From the UHGV virus genome UHGV-0110421: a stretch of 13,892 nt of DNA. One strand, 5' to 3'. How positions within the stretch are numbered: the stretch's first letter is position 1; each line of letters opens with the position of its first letter. This DNA comes from a virus. Positions 2,142-11,592 of this stretch are shown one piece after another. Position numbers and translations under genes: made by a program. The notes beneath the pieces were generated by a model that was not told the origin of the DNA, did no database searches, and worked only from the letters and a program-made list of their open reading frames with translations.

Positions 2142-3763
2142 CAGGCCTGTCTCCCTAGCAGCTCCCAGATGTTCAGGGCTGAATTCATTGGCGCGTAGCT
2201 GATCATCACCGAGTCGGCGAGGTTCGGCGACTTGGTGCCATCAGGCTGTTTATCAACAACGATTTTCCCCACGCCATTAATGGAGTAGGTCGGCTGCGAC
2301 AGCTCAATGATGAGTTTGTCTTTGCTCGCCATGGCGCTGCTGATTGAGATGATTTCGTCCGGGTTGTAGGCCATGCCCTCAACCACGGCGCGATAGGTGT
2401 TCTGGAAAAGCTTGCGTAGCCACCACCAGCTCTGGGCCTTGGCGTTGGCGAAGAAGTCCTTGTTCAGGCGTGCGGCCTGTCCGTTGTCCCCGCGCACCGC
2501 TTCATCGTCCGGATCAAATACCGCGCCGCTACCACGAAACGGTGTGGCGAGTATTGACGGTCGGCGCGCTGCGTAACGCAGTTCGTTGATGGCGCGCGCA
2601 TCGCCGCGAACGCCAGCACCCAGGCCGTCCTCGTCGAAGCGAAACTCTTCGAGGTTGTCCTGTTCGCAAAAGCCGAAGACCTTCTCAACAGACTGGTAAA
2701 TGTCGCTGCCAACGCCGGACCATTCACGCACGTTCTCCAGAAGGAAGCCGTGACGGGTCGAAAAGGCATTTTTGTCCCGGCCTTCGTCGGCGACGTCCAT
2801 CGCGCCCAGTCGCTTGCCCGTTGGCTGAATACCAAGTTTGATATGCGCGTCGACGGCAGCCTGTACCCAGTCGGACGGGATCAGGACGCCTTCCGCAGAT
2901 GCGCTGTAGTTCAGGTCAAGTTCCTGCGCCACCACCACCGGATTGTCGATTTTCTCGCATTCCCTGCGATACCACTCTTCATCCTTGCGCGGGTCATTTC
3001 GCCAGTGGAATGTGAAAACCGGTATCTTCCCGCCGTGACGCTTCTGCGCGAACGGGTTCGCCATGCCGTTAACCGAACTCAGGTCGATACGGCAGCGGGT
3101 GGTTTGCGACAGCGCTGCGTCGATCAGCAGAGGACGCTGGAGGAATGCAGCCTCATCTACCAGGTAGAGCGTGGTACGGTCACCACGTCCGATATTGTCG
3201 CCAGCTTCGCCTTTGATGACCGCGCCCGTATCGGGAAACTCAACGCGCATGTACGGCGCGTGCTTCTTCTCGTCCCACGAACCGCGAAACTCGACGGGCA
3301 GCGTTTCCACGAATTTGCGCGCCTTCCAGAACAGCGCCTTCGGGTCACCGGTGCTATCGACGTATTCCTCTTTACGGGAGCCGAAGCCGATAACCATCTC
3401 TTTGTTGAAGAGGCAGAGCGAACAGGCCAGCCCGATCGCCGTCCAGCTGAGCCCCATTTCGCGGCTCTTTTCGGTGATGCCGTTCTCCAGCCGTTCGCGC
3501 CGCTCAATGATCCAGTGAATCCACTCTTCCTGTTTCGGGAACAGCAGAAAAGGGATTGTGACCGGCAGGCCATAATCGATGTTACGCGGGTCAGTAGTCA
3601 TACCCCAGTCGATGATGAACTGTGCCGGGTTGGTGCGGTAAAACTGCTTTAGTGCTGGCAGCATTTCAGGGTTCTGGCGAATGCGCTGTAAGCGCTCCAT
3701 CCGCCATTCAAAAACCATCTGGTAATCAGGGTTTCTGAAATCGAATTCAAACGGAAGAGGCAT
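2141..3763 (-). CDS. terL: terminase large subunit
   Basis: Large ORF with terminase-like ATPase/nuclease architecture, between the small-subunit gene and portal. Start placed at ATG 3763 (MPLPFEFDF...); the tracked start at 3820 is a TTG inside the AT-rich insert and is judged unlikely. Confidence 0.8.
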
Positions 3764-3834
3764 AAACAATTCCAGGCATTGAGTTTTTGCGTAACAAAGT
3801 TGATATTGTTTATGTACCAATTACAGGAGGTTTT

Positions 3835-4047
3835 ATGACACCAGCAGTTAGCGCTAAGTTGTTGGAATTAACCAACGACCTTAACAACGAAGTAAAATTG
3901 TCTGCAATTTATGCTCTCGGCGAGAGTGCTTCAGCAACGCCAGCTCATGTAAATCGCTTACTTGATTTATCTTCGGATCTAAATCACAACGTCAAAGTCG
4001 CTGCAATTAAAGCTCTTGGCCGTATTACTCGACCAAAACAAGCCTAG
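3835..4047 (+). CDS. small repeat protein (70 aa) with two tandem HEAT-like (PBS-lyase type) repeats; antisense moron
   Basis: ATG at 3835 with a consensus AGGAGG 4 nt upstream. Protein shows an internal duplication (LLELTNDLNNEVKLSAIYALGE / LLDLSSDLNHNVKVAAIKALGR). Segment is visibly AT-rich versus flanks and is the only + strand gene in the late operon. Confidence 0.5.
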   Translation: MTPAVSAKLLELTNDLNNEVKLSAIYALGESASATPAHVNRLLDLSSDLNHNVKVAAIKALGRITRPKQA

Positions 4048-4052
4048 AATCC

Positions 4053-4073
4053 ATAGCCGCAACATGCGGCTAT
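4053..4073. other. stem-loop between convergent genes (8-bp perfect stem ATAGCCGC / GCGGCTAT, 5-nt loop)
   Basis: Perfect inverted repeat sitting exactly between the stop of the + strand repeat-protein ORF and the stop of the minus-strand small terminase gene. No U-run on either side. Confidence 0.3.
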
Positions 4074-4546
4074 CACCCCATCATCTTGCGGTAAATCTCT
4101 GCGGCCTGATCTGCGGTGAGGTTGGTCGTCTCGGTCTTGATCGGGCCGCCATCCTTGCCAGTGCTTTCAACCTTCAGCTTATTGGTGTAAGCGTCGCCAA
4201 CCTCTTTCGCGGCCTGTTCAATCAGCTGCGCCGTCAGGGAGAAGTTTTTCATCCCCTCGGTTTTGGTTGCCATGCGGTCAAGCACGCGGAGGCGATAGGA
4301 TTTGTTCGCGATCGGAATGTCGCTGGTTTCGGTCAGGAACCGTTCGCGCGTAGCGTGGAACATCTCGATCCACTTTTTGGCGAGCGTCTTACCGCTGGCC
4401 TTCGTGGGGTCGTGAGATTCAGCCTGCTGGCGGGTGATCTTGATCCCGAATTCTTTTTGGACAGCCTCAACCACCTGCGTCGGCGTGTCATAGCACGCAA
4501 GCGACTGAATGATGAAGGCTTTCACATCAGGTTTTAATGCAGCCAT
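4073..4546 (-). CDS. terminase small subunit-like protein (DUF2280-type)
   Basis: 157-aa ORF upstream of TerL in the late operon, ATG at 4546 with a GGTGA Shine-Dalgarno-like motif. Family assignment is from memory. Confidence 0.55.
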   Translation of the reverse strand: MAALKPDVKAFIIQSLACYDTPTQVVEAVQKEFGIKITRQQAESHDPTKASGKTLAKKWIEMFHATRERFLTETSDIPIANKSYRLRVLDRMATKTEGMKNFSLTAQLIEQAAKEVGDAYTNKLKVESTGKDGGPIKTETTNLTADQAAEIYRKMMG

Positions 4547-4576
4547 AAATCACCATTCGTCTTATTCAGTCCAGTT

Positions 4577-5197
4577 TTAAGCCAGTCGCAGCATGCACGT
4601 CCCGCAAGCTCTGGCAATATCGAGATGAGCAACCTCCGCTGGCTGATTCGCCGCATCAATCATTTCCTGCACATCACGGCTCGCACCGTAACGGCGAACC
4701 ACGCCCACAAACTCTTCCACATCGTGGCCGCGTAGCTTCAGCTTTGGCAGCCCCTCTTGCGTGAACTTCGGCGCGCCAAACTCATCTGTCGCTTGGCAGA
4801 TGTGATAAAGCTCGTGCTCTATCAGGGCGCAAAACTCCAGATCAGAACATTGCGAGCAGTAATCAGCGGCCAGCGTGATGATGTACTGCGGCACCCTGCC
4901 GAACCATTCATACATCTGCTGCTCCATCCGCGCTTTCTGCCAGCCTCCAGCCCGCATTGCCACTTCTTCCGCCTGCCCCAGCACGGACCGCCCTTTCTTC
5001 TCGAAAGTGTTCGACGCCCAGAGAAAGCACAGATCCGCTTCAAGCAAATGCTGGTGATCAGGGTTGTAGAGGTCACCCTCATCGCTCAGGATGTGCTGAT
5101 TCAGCCACTCGCCAACGTCACTGGCGGGCATTATGCTGATGTACGGCTTCGGGTCAGGTGGCATCGTAAAATGCGCTGGTGGGTGTGGTCTGTTCAT
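4577..5197 (-). CDS. HExxH zinc-metallopeptidase-like accessory protein
   Basis: 206-aa ORF with an HELYH motif and Cys pairs (CSQCSD, CGTC) suggesting a metalloprotease with zinc-binding elements. Lies between the lysis cassette and the terminase genes. Confidence 0.45.
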   Translation of the reverse strand: MNRPHPPAHFTMPPDPKPYISIMPASDVGEWLNQHILSDEGDLYNPDHQHLLEADLCFLWASNTFEKKGRSVLGQAEEVAMRAGGWQKARMEQQMYEWFGRVPQYIITLAADYCSQCSDLEFCALIEHELYHICQATDEFGAPKFTQEGLPKLKLRGHDVEEFVGVVRRYGASRDVQEMIDAANQPAEVAHLDIARACGTCMLRLA

Positions 5198-8697: not shown

Positions 8698-9293
8698 CCC
8701 GCAAAGCTCATCAGCTGGGCGGCGGCGTTTTCTGCCTCTTCACAACTGCGAAATGATCGGGAGAGTATCCATCGCCACAGAACATCGAGCGCGGCTTTGT
8801 ACAGCTGCTGGAACTCGGTTTCGTCCATGTTGGCAAAGGCAATGCTGCGGGGGGGTTTGCGAAGGGTGCCGTCGGGAAGCTGTATGGCGTCGTAGTGGCC
8901 AGACTCGATGATCACCCATGCACGATATGCGTCATAGGATTTGCAGATGCTGATACTACCGGCGCGCTTATCGGCGATGCGGTCCAGATATTGCTCAGCA
9001 GCATCCAGGAGTGCTGCTTCACTTCCCGCGAATGAGGCAAGGAACTTGGCATAGCCGGTTACCAGCTTGCGTTCGTTGGAGGAGATTGCCCCGCCGGTGG
9101 GTTCCCAGTATTCGAAACCGAGATTGAGTAACGCGAAGAAACGACGGTGAAAGGCCGGGTTGCGTACCTGCCGGAACTCAGCCACCAGTACGGAGCCGAG
9201 TTTGATTTTTGATTGCAGTAAATCACTGGTCTCCGGCGTAGCGGGGATCAGGATTCCTGAGGAATGCTTGATGAGTTGTAGTTCGTGCGCCAT
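8694..9293 (-). CDS. conserved phage nin-region protein (possibly DUF1367 / YbcN-like)
   Basis: 199-aa ORF, ATG at 9293 with GGAGAG upstream, in the position occupied by ybcN-type genes upstream of ybcO-rusA. Family assignment uncertain. Confidence 0.45.
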   Translation of the reverse strand: MAHELQLIKHSSGILIPATPETSDLLQSKIKLGSVLVAEFRQVRNPAFHRRFFALLNLGFEYWEPTGGAISSNERKLVTGYAKFLASFAGSEAALLDAAEQYLDRIADKRAGSISICKSYDAYRAWVIIESGHYDAIQLPDGTLRKPPRSIAFANMDETEFQQLYKAALDVLWRWILSRSFRSCEEAENAAAQLMSFAG

Positions 9294-9576: not shown

Positions 9577-9663
9577 ATTTATGTTCTCCCTTCGAGCGAC
9601 TAACAGACGCGATTAAAGATTGTCGGCAGCAGCATCAGAGGGTTACGCAAATTGCGGTATTCT

Positions 9664-9690
9664 GAAAAATGCGCGCCAGCCTTAAGCGCA
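9664..9690 (-). terminator. putative intrinsic terminator downstream of dinI
   Basis: GC-rich 5-bp stem (UGCGC / GCGCA) with an 11-nt loop, followed by UUUUUC on the minus-strand RNA, just 3' of the dinI stop. Confidence 0.35.
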
Positions 9691-9693
9691 ATT

Positions 9694-9927
9694 CTAATAA
9701 AACCAGTCGTCAGCGCTTTCCCAGGTATCCTGGAGGATTGATTCAATTTTCTTTTTATCGTCCTTGTCACCACCAAAAACACTTAACCCATCGGCCCCGG
9801 CACGGCGGATTGTGAGCCTGCAATTGTCATAGTGATCATTCAGGCGCTTAAGCAGTTCTTTCTCCAGTGCTGGTACTGCGCCTTTAGGAAGTTCTTTCAT
9901 GCGATCAATGGTTAATTCAACTTTCAT
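9694..9927 (-). CDS. dinI: DinI-like DNA-damage-inducible protein
   Basis: MKVELTIDRMKELPKGAVPALEKELLKRL...SILQDTWESADDWFY matches the DinI family pattern (C-terminal ETWESADDWF motif). Start at the second ATG (9927), which has a GGGG Shine-Dalgarno-like motif. Confidence 0.8.
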   Translation of the reverse strand: MKVELTIDRMKELPKGAVPALEKELLKRLNDHYDNCRLTIRRAGADGLSVFGGDKDDKKKIESILQDTWESADDWFY

Positions 9928-9945
9928 AATGGCCCCCATTGCATT

Positions 9946-9965
9946 TACTGTGTTTTTATACAGTA
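9946..9965. promoter_or_regulatory. LexA (SOS) box overlapping the dinI promoter
   Basis: TACTGTGTTTTTATACAGTA fits the CTGT-N8-ACAG SOS-box consensus with TA flanks. It overlaps a TATACT -10-like hexamer on the minus strand ~20 nt upstream of dinI. Confidence 0.7.
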
Positions 9966-10027
9966 TACCTATGCGCGGAAATGATCAACGCTTTAAGAGC
10001 ACAAATTGTTAATTTTCTGTCAGTAGT

Positions 10028-10056
10028 AAAAAAAAAAACCCCGCCGTAGCGGGTTG
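10028..10056 (-). terminator. intrinsic terminator
   Basis: Minus-strand RNA CCCGC-UACG-GCGGG followed by a run of 11 U (plus strand shows an A11 run then the stem). Separates the moron cassette from the dinI promoter. Confidence 0.6.
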
Positions 10057-10087
10057 AATTAGCGATGTTTTATTACGCCGCTATTTG

Positions 10088-10137
10088 TTTCTGCTGACAA
10101 AGCTCCTGTAGGTTAGCCCTAACCAGCGCCTCAGCGA
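10088..10137. repeat. direct repeat copy A (~50 bp, duplicate of methyltransferase 3' end)
   Basis: TTTCTGCTGACAAAGCTCC... aligns to 10676-10725 with about 6 mismatches over ~47 bp. Both copies would encode ...AEALVRANL(Q/P)ELCQQK(Q/E)IAA-stop on the minus strand. Confidence 0.6.
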
Positions 10138-10279
10138 GCTGATGATTGGACAGCATTAACGCAATGGGTAATAGAAACCACAGAATGCACGAAATGGCGG
10201 TGGTATTCGCCATCTGTGACAGGTTGAATATTGCTCGAATTGTATTGTTTGCACTTTAACGTTTCTGTTGTAGTGCCGG

Positions 10280-10316
10280 ATGCATGCCACCGTATGTTCA
10301 GGACGATGGCATGCAT
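10280..10316. repeat. perfect 10-bp inverted repeat (ATGCATGCCA ... TGGCATGCAT) with 17-bp spacer
   Basis: Seen directly in the sequence, immediately 3' of the 78-aa moron ORF on the minus strand. No adjacent U-run. Confidence 0.6.
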
Positions 10317-10324
10317 ATTATGGA

Positions 10325-10561
10325 TTACGATTTATCCATTCCCAGGGGATTAGGGTGAATTCCACTTACATGCCAGAACGCATGCTCTCTATTCAACTGA
10401 TTTCCCTTTGGTATCAGGAAGCCATACGTCCCAGATTTAAAAGTGGCATGAGCGCAGATTAGACTTTCTCCTTCAAAGCTATACTCAGTCCCTTCAGGGA
10501 TTAGAGAGTCAGTCTTGATCAGGTGAACAGTTCCGTTGATAGGGATCATGTAATGGTGCAT
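10325..10561 (-). CDS. uncharacterised moron protein (78 aa, His-rich, soluble)
   Basis: ATG at 10561 with GAGGAG upstream and its own extended -10 promoter. AT-rich segment. No family recognised. Confidence 0.5.
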   Translation of the reverse strand: MHHYMIPINGTVHLIKTDSLIPEGTEYSFEGESLICAHATFKSGTYGFLIPKGNQLNREHAFWHVSGIHPNPLGMDKS

Positions 10562-10599
10562 TTTAGGCTCCTCGTGTTGTGAAGAGCCTAATTATATCA
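10562..10599 (-). promoter_or_regulatory. extended -10 promoter (TGATATAAT) plus 5'-leader hairpin that pairs with the Shine-Dalgarno sequence of the 78-aa ORF
   Basis: Minus strand reads CTGATATAATT AGGCUCUUC-ACAACAC-GAGGAGCCU AAA AUG. The 9-bp stem (one G-U pair) includes the whole GAGGAG motif. Confidence 0.45.
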
Positions 10600-10660
10600 G
10601 GTTTGAATCTACGTCATTGAAGTAGCAGGATTTGTTACACCATGTTCTGAAACTCGGACA

Positions 10661-10901
10661 TTAAGCTGCGATCTCTTTCTGCTGACAAAGCTCCGGTAAA
10701 TTAGCCCTCACCAGTGCCTCGGCGAATGGCGGCGGAACTGCGTTGCCACAACGCGCAACCTGCTTGTCCTTCGCGTACTTCTGCCCCCGATAGTCCTGAT
10801 CGATGATGTACCACTCCGGGAAGCCCTGCCAGTTTGGCGTTGTTCAACCCTGGGTTGTTGCGCAGGGCTGCCAGCACCTGCTCACGGATTGTTATGTTCA
10901 T
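10661..10901 (-). pseudogene. DNA cytosine-5 methyltransferase, C-terminal remnant (truncated and frameshifted)
   Basis: Minus-strand frame ending at 10661 encodes ...WQGFPEWY...ARCGNAVPPPFAEAL..., which matches C5-methyltransferase C-terminal motifs (FP-x-Y and GNAV). That frame has a stop at 10844-10846 and no start; a different frame opens at ATG 10901 just after the P stop. Confidence 0.55.
10676..10725. repeat. direct repeat copy B (native 3' end of the methyltransferase remnant)
   Basis: Partner of 10088-10137; see that feature. Confidence 0.6.
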
Positions 10902-10902
10902 G

Positions 10903-11592
10903 TCACACCATCCCGTTCGACTTGTTGCGGTTGTACTTGGCCAGCAGCAGCTGGATCGGCGTCGGCCCTTGCTCGGCAGCTGGTGCGGCAATAGCCCGGC
11001 GTACCGGCGGCACTGGCTTACCCTCGGTGACGCGCCTTTCCCACATGTCCAGCAGATCGCCTGCCTCGCGTGCCAGTTCACCATGCGTTAACTGGCGCTC
11101 GGTGCTGCGGTGGCGCAATTCTACGCAAATGTGGTACATGACCGGCTGCGACCATGGAAATTGCTCGCTGGAGATGAATTCGAACGAGCGGTTACGCCAG
11201 TCCCAGTATTCGGCGATCACCTGGTCAACGTTGACGCCCAGCGCGCCGCCGCTCTGCTTGCACCAGGCGACGAACTGGCCCGGCGACGGCAGGAATGGGC
11301 GCTCCTGGCGGCGGGCAATGCGCATGCCGGCATCGACCTGAGCCATGGTGTGGATCCCGTTCTCCTGAAACGCCAGCAGCCACTGACGGCGGAATTCGTT
11401 CAGGTCTTCCTGGGTGCGGAAGTTCGCCATGCTGGCCGGGAACGCGGCGCGCAGCTCGTTGAACAGCTTGTTGAATACCTGCGCCACCTGCTCGACCGGC
11501 GCGCACTCCTGGTACTGCTCTGGCAGGTTATGGGCCATGCGGCTCATCTGCTCGCGGTCGTGGTTACGCATCTGCTCTGCAAGAGATTTCAT
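10903..11592 (-). CDS. P: replication protein P (DnaB helicase loader)
   Basis: Strong resemblance throughout to lambda P as remembered (e.g. NLPEQY, FPASMANF, RQWLLAFQENGIHTMAQVDAGMRIARRQERPFLPSPGQFVAWC). ATG overlaps the O stop (ATGA). Confidence 0.9.
   Translation of the reverse strand: MKSLAEQMRNHDREQMSRMAHNLPEQYQECAPVEQVAQVFNKLFNELRAAFPASMANFRTQEDLNEFRRQWLLAFQENGIHTMAQVDAGMRIARRQERPFLPSPGQFVAWCKQSGGALGVNVDQVIAEYWDWRNRSFEFISSEQFPWSQPVMYHICVELRHRSTERQLTHGELAREAGDLLDMWERRVTEGKPVPPVRRAIAAPAAEQGPTPIQLLLAKYNRNKSNGMV

Follow-up and report, generated by a model that had tools for sequence, protein, structure and literature searches.

The mosaic joints and boundary sequences of lambdoid phages have reportedly been treated under two models, the module model of Susskind and Botstein and the illegitimate-recombination model of Hendrix. 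A moron, as defined by Juhala and Hendrix, is an added gene that is absent from collinear relatives, carries its own promoter and its own terminator, differs in guanine-plus-cytosine (GC) content and is expressed from the repressed prophage; HK97 gene 15 and the lambda genes bor and lom are the classical lambdoid examples (PMC3594210). Here we describe a cassette built around a 78-codon open reading frame (ORF), orf78, in a 13,892-nucleotide stretch of the virus genome UHGV-0110421. We call this whole stretch the window and use its positions throughout; all genes around the cassette lie on the minus strand. We consider it likely that the region is a small autonomous accessory-gene module, that is, a moron, of an mEp237-like lambdoid prophage.

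In the order of transcription, the proposed module would comprise an extended -10 sigma-70 promoter, a leader palindrome lying over the ribosome-binding site, orf78 itself and a stable 3' hairpin. It lies right after the stop codon of a phage C5 methyltransferase gene and is followed by the decayed 3' piece of a second methyltransferase gene, the terminator of that second gene and the SOS-controlled dinI; in the lysogen, its own promoter would drive orf78. Across the region, identity to phage mEp237 is 99.5%, and the GenBank record of this phage already marks the 78-aa ORF (gp47, hypothetical), a promoter and a 134-codon "DNA methyltransferase, similar to C-terminus", and the same arrangement is present in 32 of 5,426 complete Escherichia coli genomes. 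A first-pass annotation of the window, made from its letters and ORF translations, had described AT-rich cargo with an extended -10 element and a 78-aa histidine-rich ORF, and this description holds: the 522 bp between the repeats that bracket the cassette (10138-10659) have a GC content of 43.5%, compared with 62.8% in replication gene P, 45.9% in dinI and 53.6% in the whole window, the -10 element reads TGaTATAAT, and the protein has seven histidines. Moreover, orf78 is absent from collinear relatives, namely E. coli prophages of the type found in strain AR_0119 (L002) and Klebsiella phage 5 LV-2017 (L007).

The evidence marks orf78 as a real gene, because its length and a set of invariant residues are kept, because amino-acid-changing differences fall far below silent ones, and because a GAGGAG ribosome-binding site stands 6 nt before its ATG. 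Homologues at 39-43% identity are 75-78 aa long and share 17 invariant residues, among them Y4, P7, K16, P22, G24, C36, H38, Y46-G47, L49, G53 and P70-N-P-L73; His2/3 are conserved as well. Between the window and locus L004, the proportion of differing silent sites (pS) is 0.86, which means saturation, and that of amino-acid-changing sites (pN) is 0.385; within clade 2 (L004 vs L015), the ratio of nonsynonymous to synonymous substitution rates (dN/dS) is 0.25. In addition, the protein is annotated in mEp237 and in clade-2 genomes, and AlphaFold (AF2) modelled it from only seven sequences with a predicted local distance difference test score (pLDDT) of 80. One could still argue that the 78 codons are not a gene and that the cassette is non-coding junk between recombination scars, as the Prokaryotic Genome Annotation Pipeline (PGAP) annotates nothing there in 32 of 32 complete genomes and dN/dS is about 1 among the closest alleles, which differ by very few substitutions. 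Set against residues and length retained at ~40% identity across saturated silent sites, we find this view hardly credible.

The orf78 protein is 100% identical to mEp237 gp47 and matches phrog_30079, a family of unknown function, over its full length (6.9e-49). Public assemblies contain the exact protein in 3,456 indexed blocks, and its cluster draws its members from E. coli and Citrobacter. The whole family comprises seven clusters at 90% identity out of 5.8 billion, and five representatives at E<=1e-10 out of 1.8 billion; tblastn over 50,697 phage records returned mEp237 only, and scanning 100,044 species genomes with peptide patterns yielded no relative. As far as these searches reach, orf78 appears to be restricted to a tiny family of enterobacterial prophages. 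The long repeat proteins P0008 and P0010-P0012 were considered as homologues and rejected, since the similarity is that of a hairpin motif of ~12 residues, DGTYGYLVP, added up over the repeats; in Pfam they had nothing but spurious matches below threshold. In three of these proteins (P0008, P0011 and P0012, of unknown family) GGFTDGTYGYLVPY occurs many times; this sequence is similar to the orf78 hairpin SGTYGFLIPKG, and the likeness probably reflects a beta-hairpin motif in common, not homology. Another public protein, P0006 (142 aa), fuses a YdaT-family N-terminal part to residues 21-78 of orf78, presumably as the result of a deletion across the replication genes of a prophage.

The sequence upstream of the gene supports a functional sigma-70 promoter that travels with orf78, because a block of ~50 nt (AAATCCTGCTACTTCAATGACGTAGATTCAAAC[C/T]TGATATAAT) is near-invariant across clades whose proteins are ~40% identical and whose coding sequences BLASTN no longer aligns, and because this block still accompanies orf78 in L009, where the gene stands behind an unrelated 240-aa gene. 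The extended -10 element is kept in seven of eight loci, and its position is that of the promoter annotated in the mEp237 record. The -35-like ATGACG matches the consensus at four of six positions and is separated from the -10 by a 15-nt spacer; a consensus promoter scan, which allowed spacers of 16-18 nt only, did not call the element. Some 25 further nucleotides upstream are conserved beyond the promoter elements. Across the window, L004, L015, L017 and L009, the upstream ~50 nt is more conserved than a bare -10 and -35 would need, which suggests either that further regulatory sites are present, such as the direct TTCAA-N9-TTCAA, or that recombination has repeatedly ended at the start codon.

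The cassette is bracketed by direct repeats. That these are imperfect copies of the last ~20 codons of a methyltransferase gene, as first proposed, was borne out: the two copies are 66 nt each, agree at 55 of the 66 positions (83%) and start 588 nt apart, far above what shuffling the region 200 times produced (best 66-mer match 38/66, mean 33). Translated on the minus strand, both give a methyltransferase C-terminus of the C5 type, AEALVRANL(P/Q)ELCQQK(E/Q)IAA*. Upstream, copy 1 is contiguous with GNAVPPP, motif X of these enzymes, and in L020 it runs on into an intact methyltransferase gene; the fragment kept by mEp237 matches Pfam PF00145 at 3.9e-07. The homology of copy 2 to methyltransferases reaches ~32 codons (VTHCTNAIQSPLAEALV...) and includes a degenerate motif X (THCVNAVQSS vs RCGNAVPPP), and tblastn with intact methyltransferases aligned 31-32 residues to the copy-2 equivalents of L010 and L014 (2e-11 and 2e-09). 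In the window this copy is frameshifted by a 1-nt insertion near 10139 that L045 does not have, and in L014 it has an internal stop. On this evidence copy 2 is a non-coding scar, the decayed 3' piece of a second methyltransferase gene. Neither flanking remnant has a full catalytic domain, in which motifs I, IV, VI and X would share one frame; motif X alone is present intact, in copy 1, where it is out of frame with a 66-codon fusion ORF that overlaps it. An extra short repeat, AATGGCGG(T/C)GG, is found at 10193-10203 and 10725-10735 and corresponds to the PPPF codons of motif X. The occurrence at 10193-10203 stands ~55 nt farther from copy 2 than its counterpart from copy 1, and is either another small piece of a methyltransferase within the spacer or a chance match.

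Comparison of genomes indicates that the methyltransferase 3' ends act as crossover sites through which the module is lost or exchanged. Four E. coli genomes, L002 among them, lack the cassette and have one chimeric repeat each. In L002, the one remaining repeat matches copy 2 without a difference through 10106 and copy 1 likewise from 10676 on; the crossover therefore fell within the 19-nt core that is identical in both copies. L002 differs from the window by ~2% on the dinI side and by ~0.5% on the P side; since this divergence is unequal, an exchange between phages is possible instead of an intramolecular deletion, and the L002-type loss may have happened in that way. The alternative that an L002-type genome is the ancestral empty site, with a target duplication made upon insertion, was rejected because its repeat is a clean copy-2/copy-1 chimera. 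A further ground for the rejection was the divergence of the two copies (17%), set against flanks that are 98-99.9% identical.

Other relatives vary the content of the same junction. In L007, the methyltransferase is followed by the terminator and DinI with nothing between them. In L015 and L017, three genes lie between copy 1 and a degenerate copy 2-terminator-dinI, namely a clade-2 orf78, one for a homologue of Pol III theta and one of 84 aa, and L005 (E. coli ECCWS199, 3294-4937) has other cargo at the copy-2/terminator/dinI junction, upstream of copy 2. The L005 cargo consists of a hypothetical gene of 113 aa, a tRNA-Ile in the opposite orientation and a number of small ORFs. Of the two arrangements that the first-pass annotation had envisaged among related prophages, an intact methyltransferase and different cargo between the same brackets, both were found, as was an empty site. 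When the window is compared with L014 by segment, the ORF (97.9%) and the promoter and leader (93.9%) are best kept and the repeats worst (80-86%), which fits a shuffling of alleles at the repeats. The ancestral methyltransferase-terminator-dinI and methyltransferase-orf78 layouts are both extant, and the bracketed form exists with an intact methyltransferase as well. The bracketed form would be the product of a cross between a methyltransferase-orf78 phage and a methyltransferase-terminator-dinI phage, in which the left join would be a homologous crossover in the methyltransferase and the right one an illegitimate join into the last part of the methyltransferase of the other phage.

A different origin had been proposed at first, namely that the entry of the cassette replaced most of the methyltransferase gene and left its 3' end duplicated on both sides. 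The proposal accounts for the 55 methyltransferase codons left in the window and for the methyltransferase 3' ends that flank the cargo. However, the cassette did not replace the methyltransferase, because close relatives have the same cassette behind an intact gene. L020 (GCA_045610785.1) is 99.7% identical to window positions 10829-9600 and shares the cassette, copy 2, the terminator and dinI; directly upstream of its cassette lies an intact 627-aa C5 methyltransferase (PF00145, 1.4e-19) with motifs FAGGGG, PDCRHFS, ENV and GNAVPPP. Similarly, L014 has a 91%-identical cassette, copy 2 included, behind a 712-aa methyltransferase, and in L008 a 75-aa orf78 homologue follows a 657-aa methyltransferase after 77 nt, with no second repeat. 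Moreover, the lost methyltransferase sequence lies upstream of copy 1, where deletions are visible in comparison with L020 and mEp237, and replacement by the cassette is consequently very improbable.

What was lost can be followed in mEp237. Relative to this phage, the window lacks 709 bp upstream of the cassette, between two copies of AAGCCCTGC; the deletion took most of a ren-like gene, gp45 and 79 of the 134 codons of the methyltransferase fragment that mEp237 keeps. The methyltransferase therefore decayed later, by separate deletions upstream of the cassette, of which the 709-bp one was the latest. PGAP lists the equivalent of the remnant in L002 as a pseudogene, 'DNA cytosine methyltransferase, missing N-terminus'. 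The 66-codon fusion ORF gave no match in Pfam. RefSeq lists it as the hypothetical protein WP_001299077.1, while the adjoining conserved orf78 stays unannotated.

The leader of orf78 contains a palindrome of its own. The perfect 10-bp inverted repeat reported by the first-pass annotation is present, as the core (ATGCATGCCA/TGGCATGCAT) of the 3' hairpin at 10280-10316, and the leader palindrome at 10563-10591 is a second inverted repeat, with 10 of 11 positions matching. The ribosome-binding site (10573-10568) lies in the 3' arm of this palindrome, and the final base of the -10 hexamer is the first of its 5' arm. If the whole 5' arm is transcribed, the leader folds at -16.4 kcal/mol (z score -4.5), compared with -3.3 for an RNA that starts ~7 nt after the -10. 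The potential to pair is kept in L004, L009 and L015 (82% of cells), and the one imperfect position pairs as a G-U wobble in clade 1, whereas clade 2 has C-G there. It is tempting to speculate that the leader folds only in transcripts begun upstream, that is, in early lytic read-through from pR, where it would hide the ribosome-binding site. Most of the orf78 protein would then stem from transcripts of the module's own promoter and the read-through transcripts would be translationally silent, so the palindrome may act to silence their translation.

The palindrome could also be a DNA operator for a dimeric repressor at the transcription start instead of an RNA hairpin. Its half-sites (TTAGGCTC/GAGCCTAA) are perfect and stand at the same spacing of 13 nt in either clade, the palindrome is placed exactly at -10/+1, and the pattern of changes in the leader, described below, is equally compatible with an operator. 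Yet the half-site recurs neither in the operators of the immunity region nor above chance elsewhere in the window, the 3' arm is the ribosome-binding site itself, and the single imperfect position, G-U or C-G, is of a kind tolerated in RNA. We regard the operator as possible, if somewhat unlikely, and keep the hairpin, tentatively, as our reading of the palindrome.

Several points weigh against an autonomous module. First, orf78 adjoins a methyltransferase gene or its remnant in most lineages, and a functional link is possible instead of autonomy. Second, the cassette has no U-tract terminator of its own, although a terminator is part of the definition of a moron. Third, the gap in GC content is large between the cassette and the replication genes and small between the cassette and dinI. 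Fourth, PGAP leaves the gene unannotated, as mentioned above, and every family, defence and fold search leaves its function unassigned. Finally, no pair in the leader has changed on both sides and the covariation score is no better than that of shuffles, and the absence of the 5' arm from the module's own transcript is deduced from position.

The first of these points is at the centre of an alternative in which orf78 is the partner of the methyltransferase (e.g. a modulator, or an anti-restriction or repair helper), belongs to the early lytic operon and is, in the window, a leftover that outlived its partner. A methyltransferase or its 3' remnant adjoins orf78 in three diverged clades (window/L014/L010, L004/L015 and L008), orf78 is oriented as the pR operon is, and it lacks a dedicated intrinsic terminator. 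Against a partnership, orf78 and its promoter are intact, and the best-conserved segment, in many prophages where the methyltransferase is destroyed (among them 31 of the 32 cassette-bearing complete E. coli genomes and assemblies numbering in the thousands). L009, moreover, has orf78 behind an unrelated gene, and methyltransferases of this type occur without orf78, as in L007. We therefore think the partnership unlikely and retain the moron as the preferred reading of the region.

What the orf78 product does can be approached through its model, which shows five strands over residues 2-51 and a helix at 58-68, and ends in an HPNPL tail that is disordered. Foldseek found nothing at E<=0.001 for the pLDDT-80 model in the PDB or for a pLDDT-69 model in BFVD. 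Searches with the family in Pfam, NCBIfam and the PDB (sequence profile) gave no match, PADLOC-DB defence profiles run against four family members gave 0 families at E<=1, and an exhaustive HMMER search of 1.8 billion representatives brought no functional assignment. Literature searches on mEp237 turned up nothing about orf78 or gp47. In this respect the first-pass annotation was right that the protein belongs to no assignable family, and sensitive profile searches and structure prediction gave no family of known function and no known fold. It was mistaken in presenting the protein as undescribed, given that it is annotated as gp47 and belongs to the uncharacterised phrog_30079. Similarly, the idea of an independently promoted accessory gene at the boundary of the replication and nin genes gains from the conserved promoter and the variable presence, and its suggested role in defence finds no match in PADLOC-DB.

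Because the protein is small and featureless, and because its neighbours in relatives are small binders of the host DNA metabolism (DinI and Pol III theta homologues), we infer that the product binds a host or phage partner and is not an enzyme. We could speculate further that orf78 is a new, prophage-expressed family, with a fold without solved relative, that serves as a modulator of defence, anti-defence or host DNA metabolism, that the leader hiding the ribosome-binding site gates its synthesis by promoter, and that the methyltransferase-tail repeats are portable homology arms for its gain and loss among lambdoid phages. In this extended form the proposal is quite improbable.

Downstream of the gene, the 3' hairpin (-21.8 kcal/mol, z score -3.95) has no U tract and is partly conserved in L014 and L010, without compensatory changes; it is probably a stabiliser of the transcript 3' end or a weak terminator. 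The strong terminator that had been assigned to the cargo does exist, at 10053-10028. It belongs, however, to the ancestral methyltransferase-dinI junction and not to the cargo, because L002 and L007 have it although they carry no cargo. The same terminator directly follows the methyltransferase in L002, L005 and L015/L017, and a diverged form does so in the Klebsiella phage. The prophage dinI is, by the evidence of its upstream sequence, an SOS-controlled unit of its own, because a perfect LexA box lies just upstream. The terminator also insulates dinI from upstream transcription.

Two further observations concern the neighbourhood. A hydrophobic mini-ORF (MANTTAISCILWFLLPIALMLSNH...) lies on the minus strand at 10073-10213, between the orf78 hairpin and copy 2, with a length of 46 aa in the window; the versions in L014 and L045 have 30 aa. 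When the window is compared with L014, pS is 0.36 and pN 0.03 in the frame of the mini-ORF, and in the other two frames pN is at or close to pS; these values come from 8 substitutions only, the mini-ORF has no ribosome-binding site, and its start codon is deleted in L010. The pattern hints at a small membrane peptide, and a search of viral contigs for diverged copies gave nothing beyond the two known versions. Further downstream, the DUF1367/NinB gene contains a stretch of ~430 bp (8832-9264) in which roughly one base in three differs between the window and L002; the flanks are near-identical, which makes the stretch a sharp mosaic patch from another allele. An Rfam scan of 9600-11000 gave no match, and a tRNA search of the window found none. 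The coordinates of the features are collected in Table 1.

Table 1. Features of the orf78 cassette and its surroundings, in window positions
Feature	Position	Strand	Details
Replication gene P	11592-10903	minus	
66-codon fusion ORF	10701-10901	minus	27 ren-like codons plus out-of-frame methyltransferase sequence
Resident C5-methyltransferase remnant	10661-10829	minus	last 55 codons, including motif X; in frame with no start codon
Deletion junction, 709 bp missing vs mEp237	10821-10829		9-bp microhomology AAGCCCTGC
Cassette and downstream elements, in order of transcription			copy 1, promoter, leader palindrome, orf78, hairpin, ~140 nt spacer, copy 2, terminator, LexA box, dinI
Direct-repeat copy 1	10660-10725	minus	true 3' end of resident methyltransferase: last 20 codons and stop
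19-nt core identical in both repeats	10088-10106 (= 10676-10694)		crossover interval in cassette-less genomes
orf78 promoter block (putative)	10591-10640	minus	-10 TATAAT 10596-10591; extended TG 10599-10598; -35-like ATGACG 10617-10612
Leader palindrome TTAGGCTCTTC-N7-GAGGAGCCTAA	10563-10591	minus	arms 10563-10573/10581-10591; 10/11 match; unique in window
orf78	10325-10561	minus	78 aa, 7 His, cytoplasmic (predicted); mEp237 gp47, phrog_30079
3' hairpin	10280-10316	minus	8 nt after orf78 stop; arms 10280-10293/10303-10316, 14 nt, 13/14
Copy 2, extended remnant (non-coding)	10072-10175	minus	weaker protein-level homology to ~10175
Direct-repeat copy 2 proper	10072-10137	minus	last 20 codons and TAATAA
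Intrinsic terminator	10028-10053	minus	CCCGC-TACG-GCGGG stem-loop (10053-10040), G + 11 T to 10028; -11.2 kcal/mol
LexA box TACTGTGTTTTTATACAGTA	9946-9965		TACTGT-N8-ACAGTA; 0 mismatches; 0.01 expected by chance
dinI	9694-9927	minus	Pfam DinI 4.3e-26

Nothing in this locus will surprise a phage specialist. It offers a worked example of lambdoid mosaic evolution, in which the parental layouts, the recombinant, the decay of the methyltransferase and a mapped loss can all be seen in public genomes. It also brings to light a conserved small gene, present in thousands of E. coli and Citrobacter assemblies, that is missing from the RefSeq annotation of complete genomes. As a protein without known relative or fold match, the orf78 product is a cheap candidate for screens of prophage phenotypes, and the leader that hides the ribosome-binding site, if real, would be a phage example of promoter-specific translation.

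How does this locus compare with described systems? With mEp237 gp47 and phrog_30079 there is no difference, as the protein is the same. Like the classical morons, orf78 is present or absent between genes that are adjacent in relatives, has its own (predicted) promoter, resides in a temperate phage and has a lower GC content than the neighbouring core genes. Unlike them, it has no U-tract terminator, is bracketed by diverged repeats of the 3' end of its neighbour, and lies in the early (nin) region and not in the late operon. For the leader, the nearest parallel is the 'fold-back inhibition' that, according to Davis, Simons and Kleckner (1985), reportedly protects the transposase genes of IS10 and IS50 from read-through. 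As in those elements, the ribosome-binding site of orf78 can pair with sequence upstream of the gene's own (predicted) transcription start; here, in contrast, the resemblance is purely positional and thermodynamic, with no covariation, and the gene is a phage accessory gene and not a transposase. As regards the repeats, they are ordinary scars of lambdoid mosaicism that are reused as crossover sites. Just as in the mosaic joints of lambdoid phages, short conserved border stretches serve again as crossovers and gene fragments are the scars of non-homologous joins. This locus goes beyond the usual joints in that both parental layouts, the recombinant, a precise loss within a 19-nt interval and an alternative cargo can all be found in public genomes.

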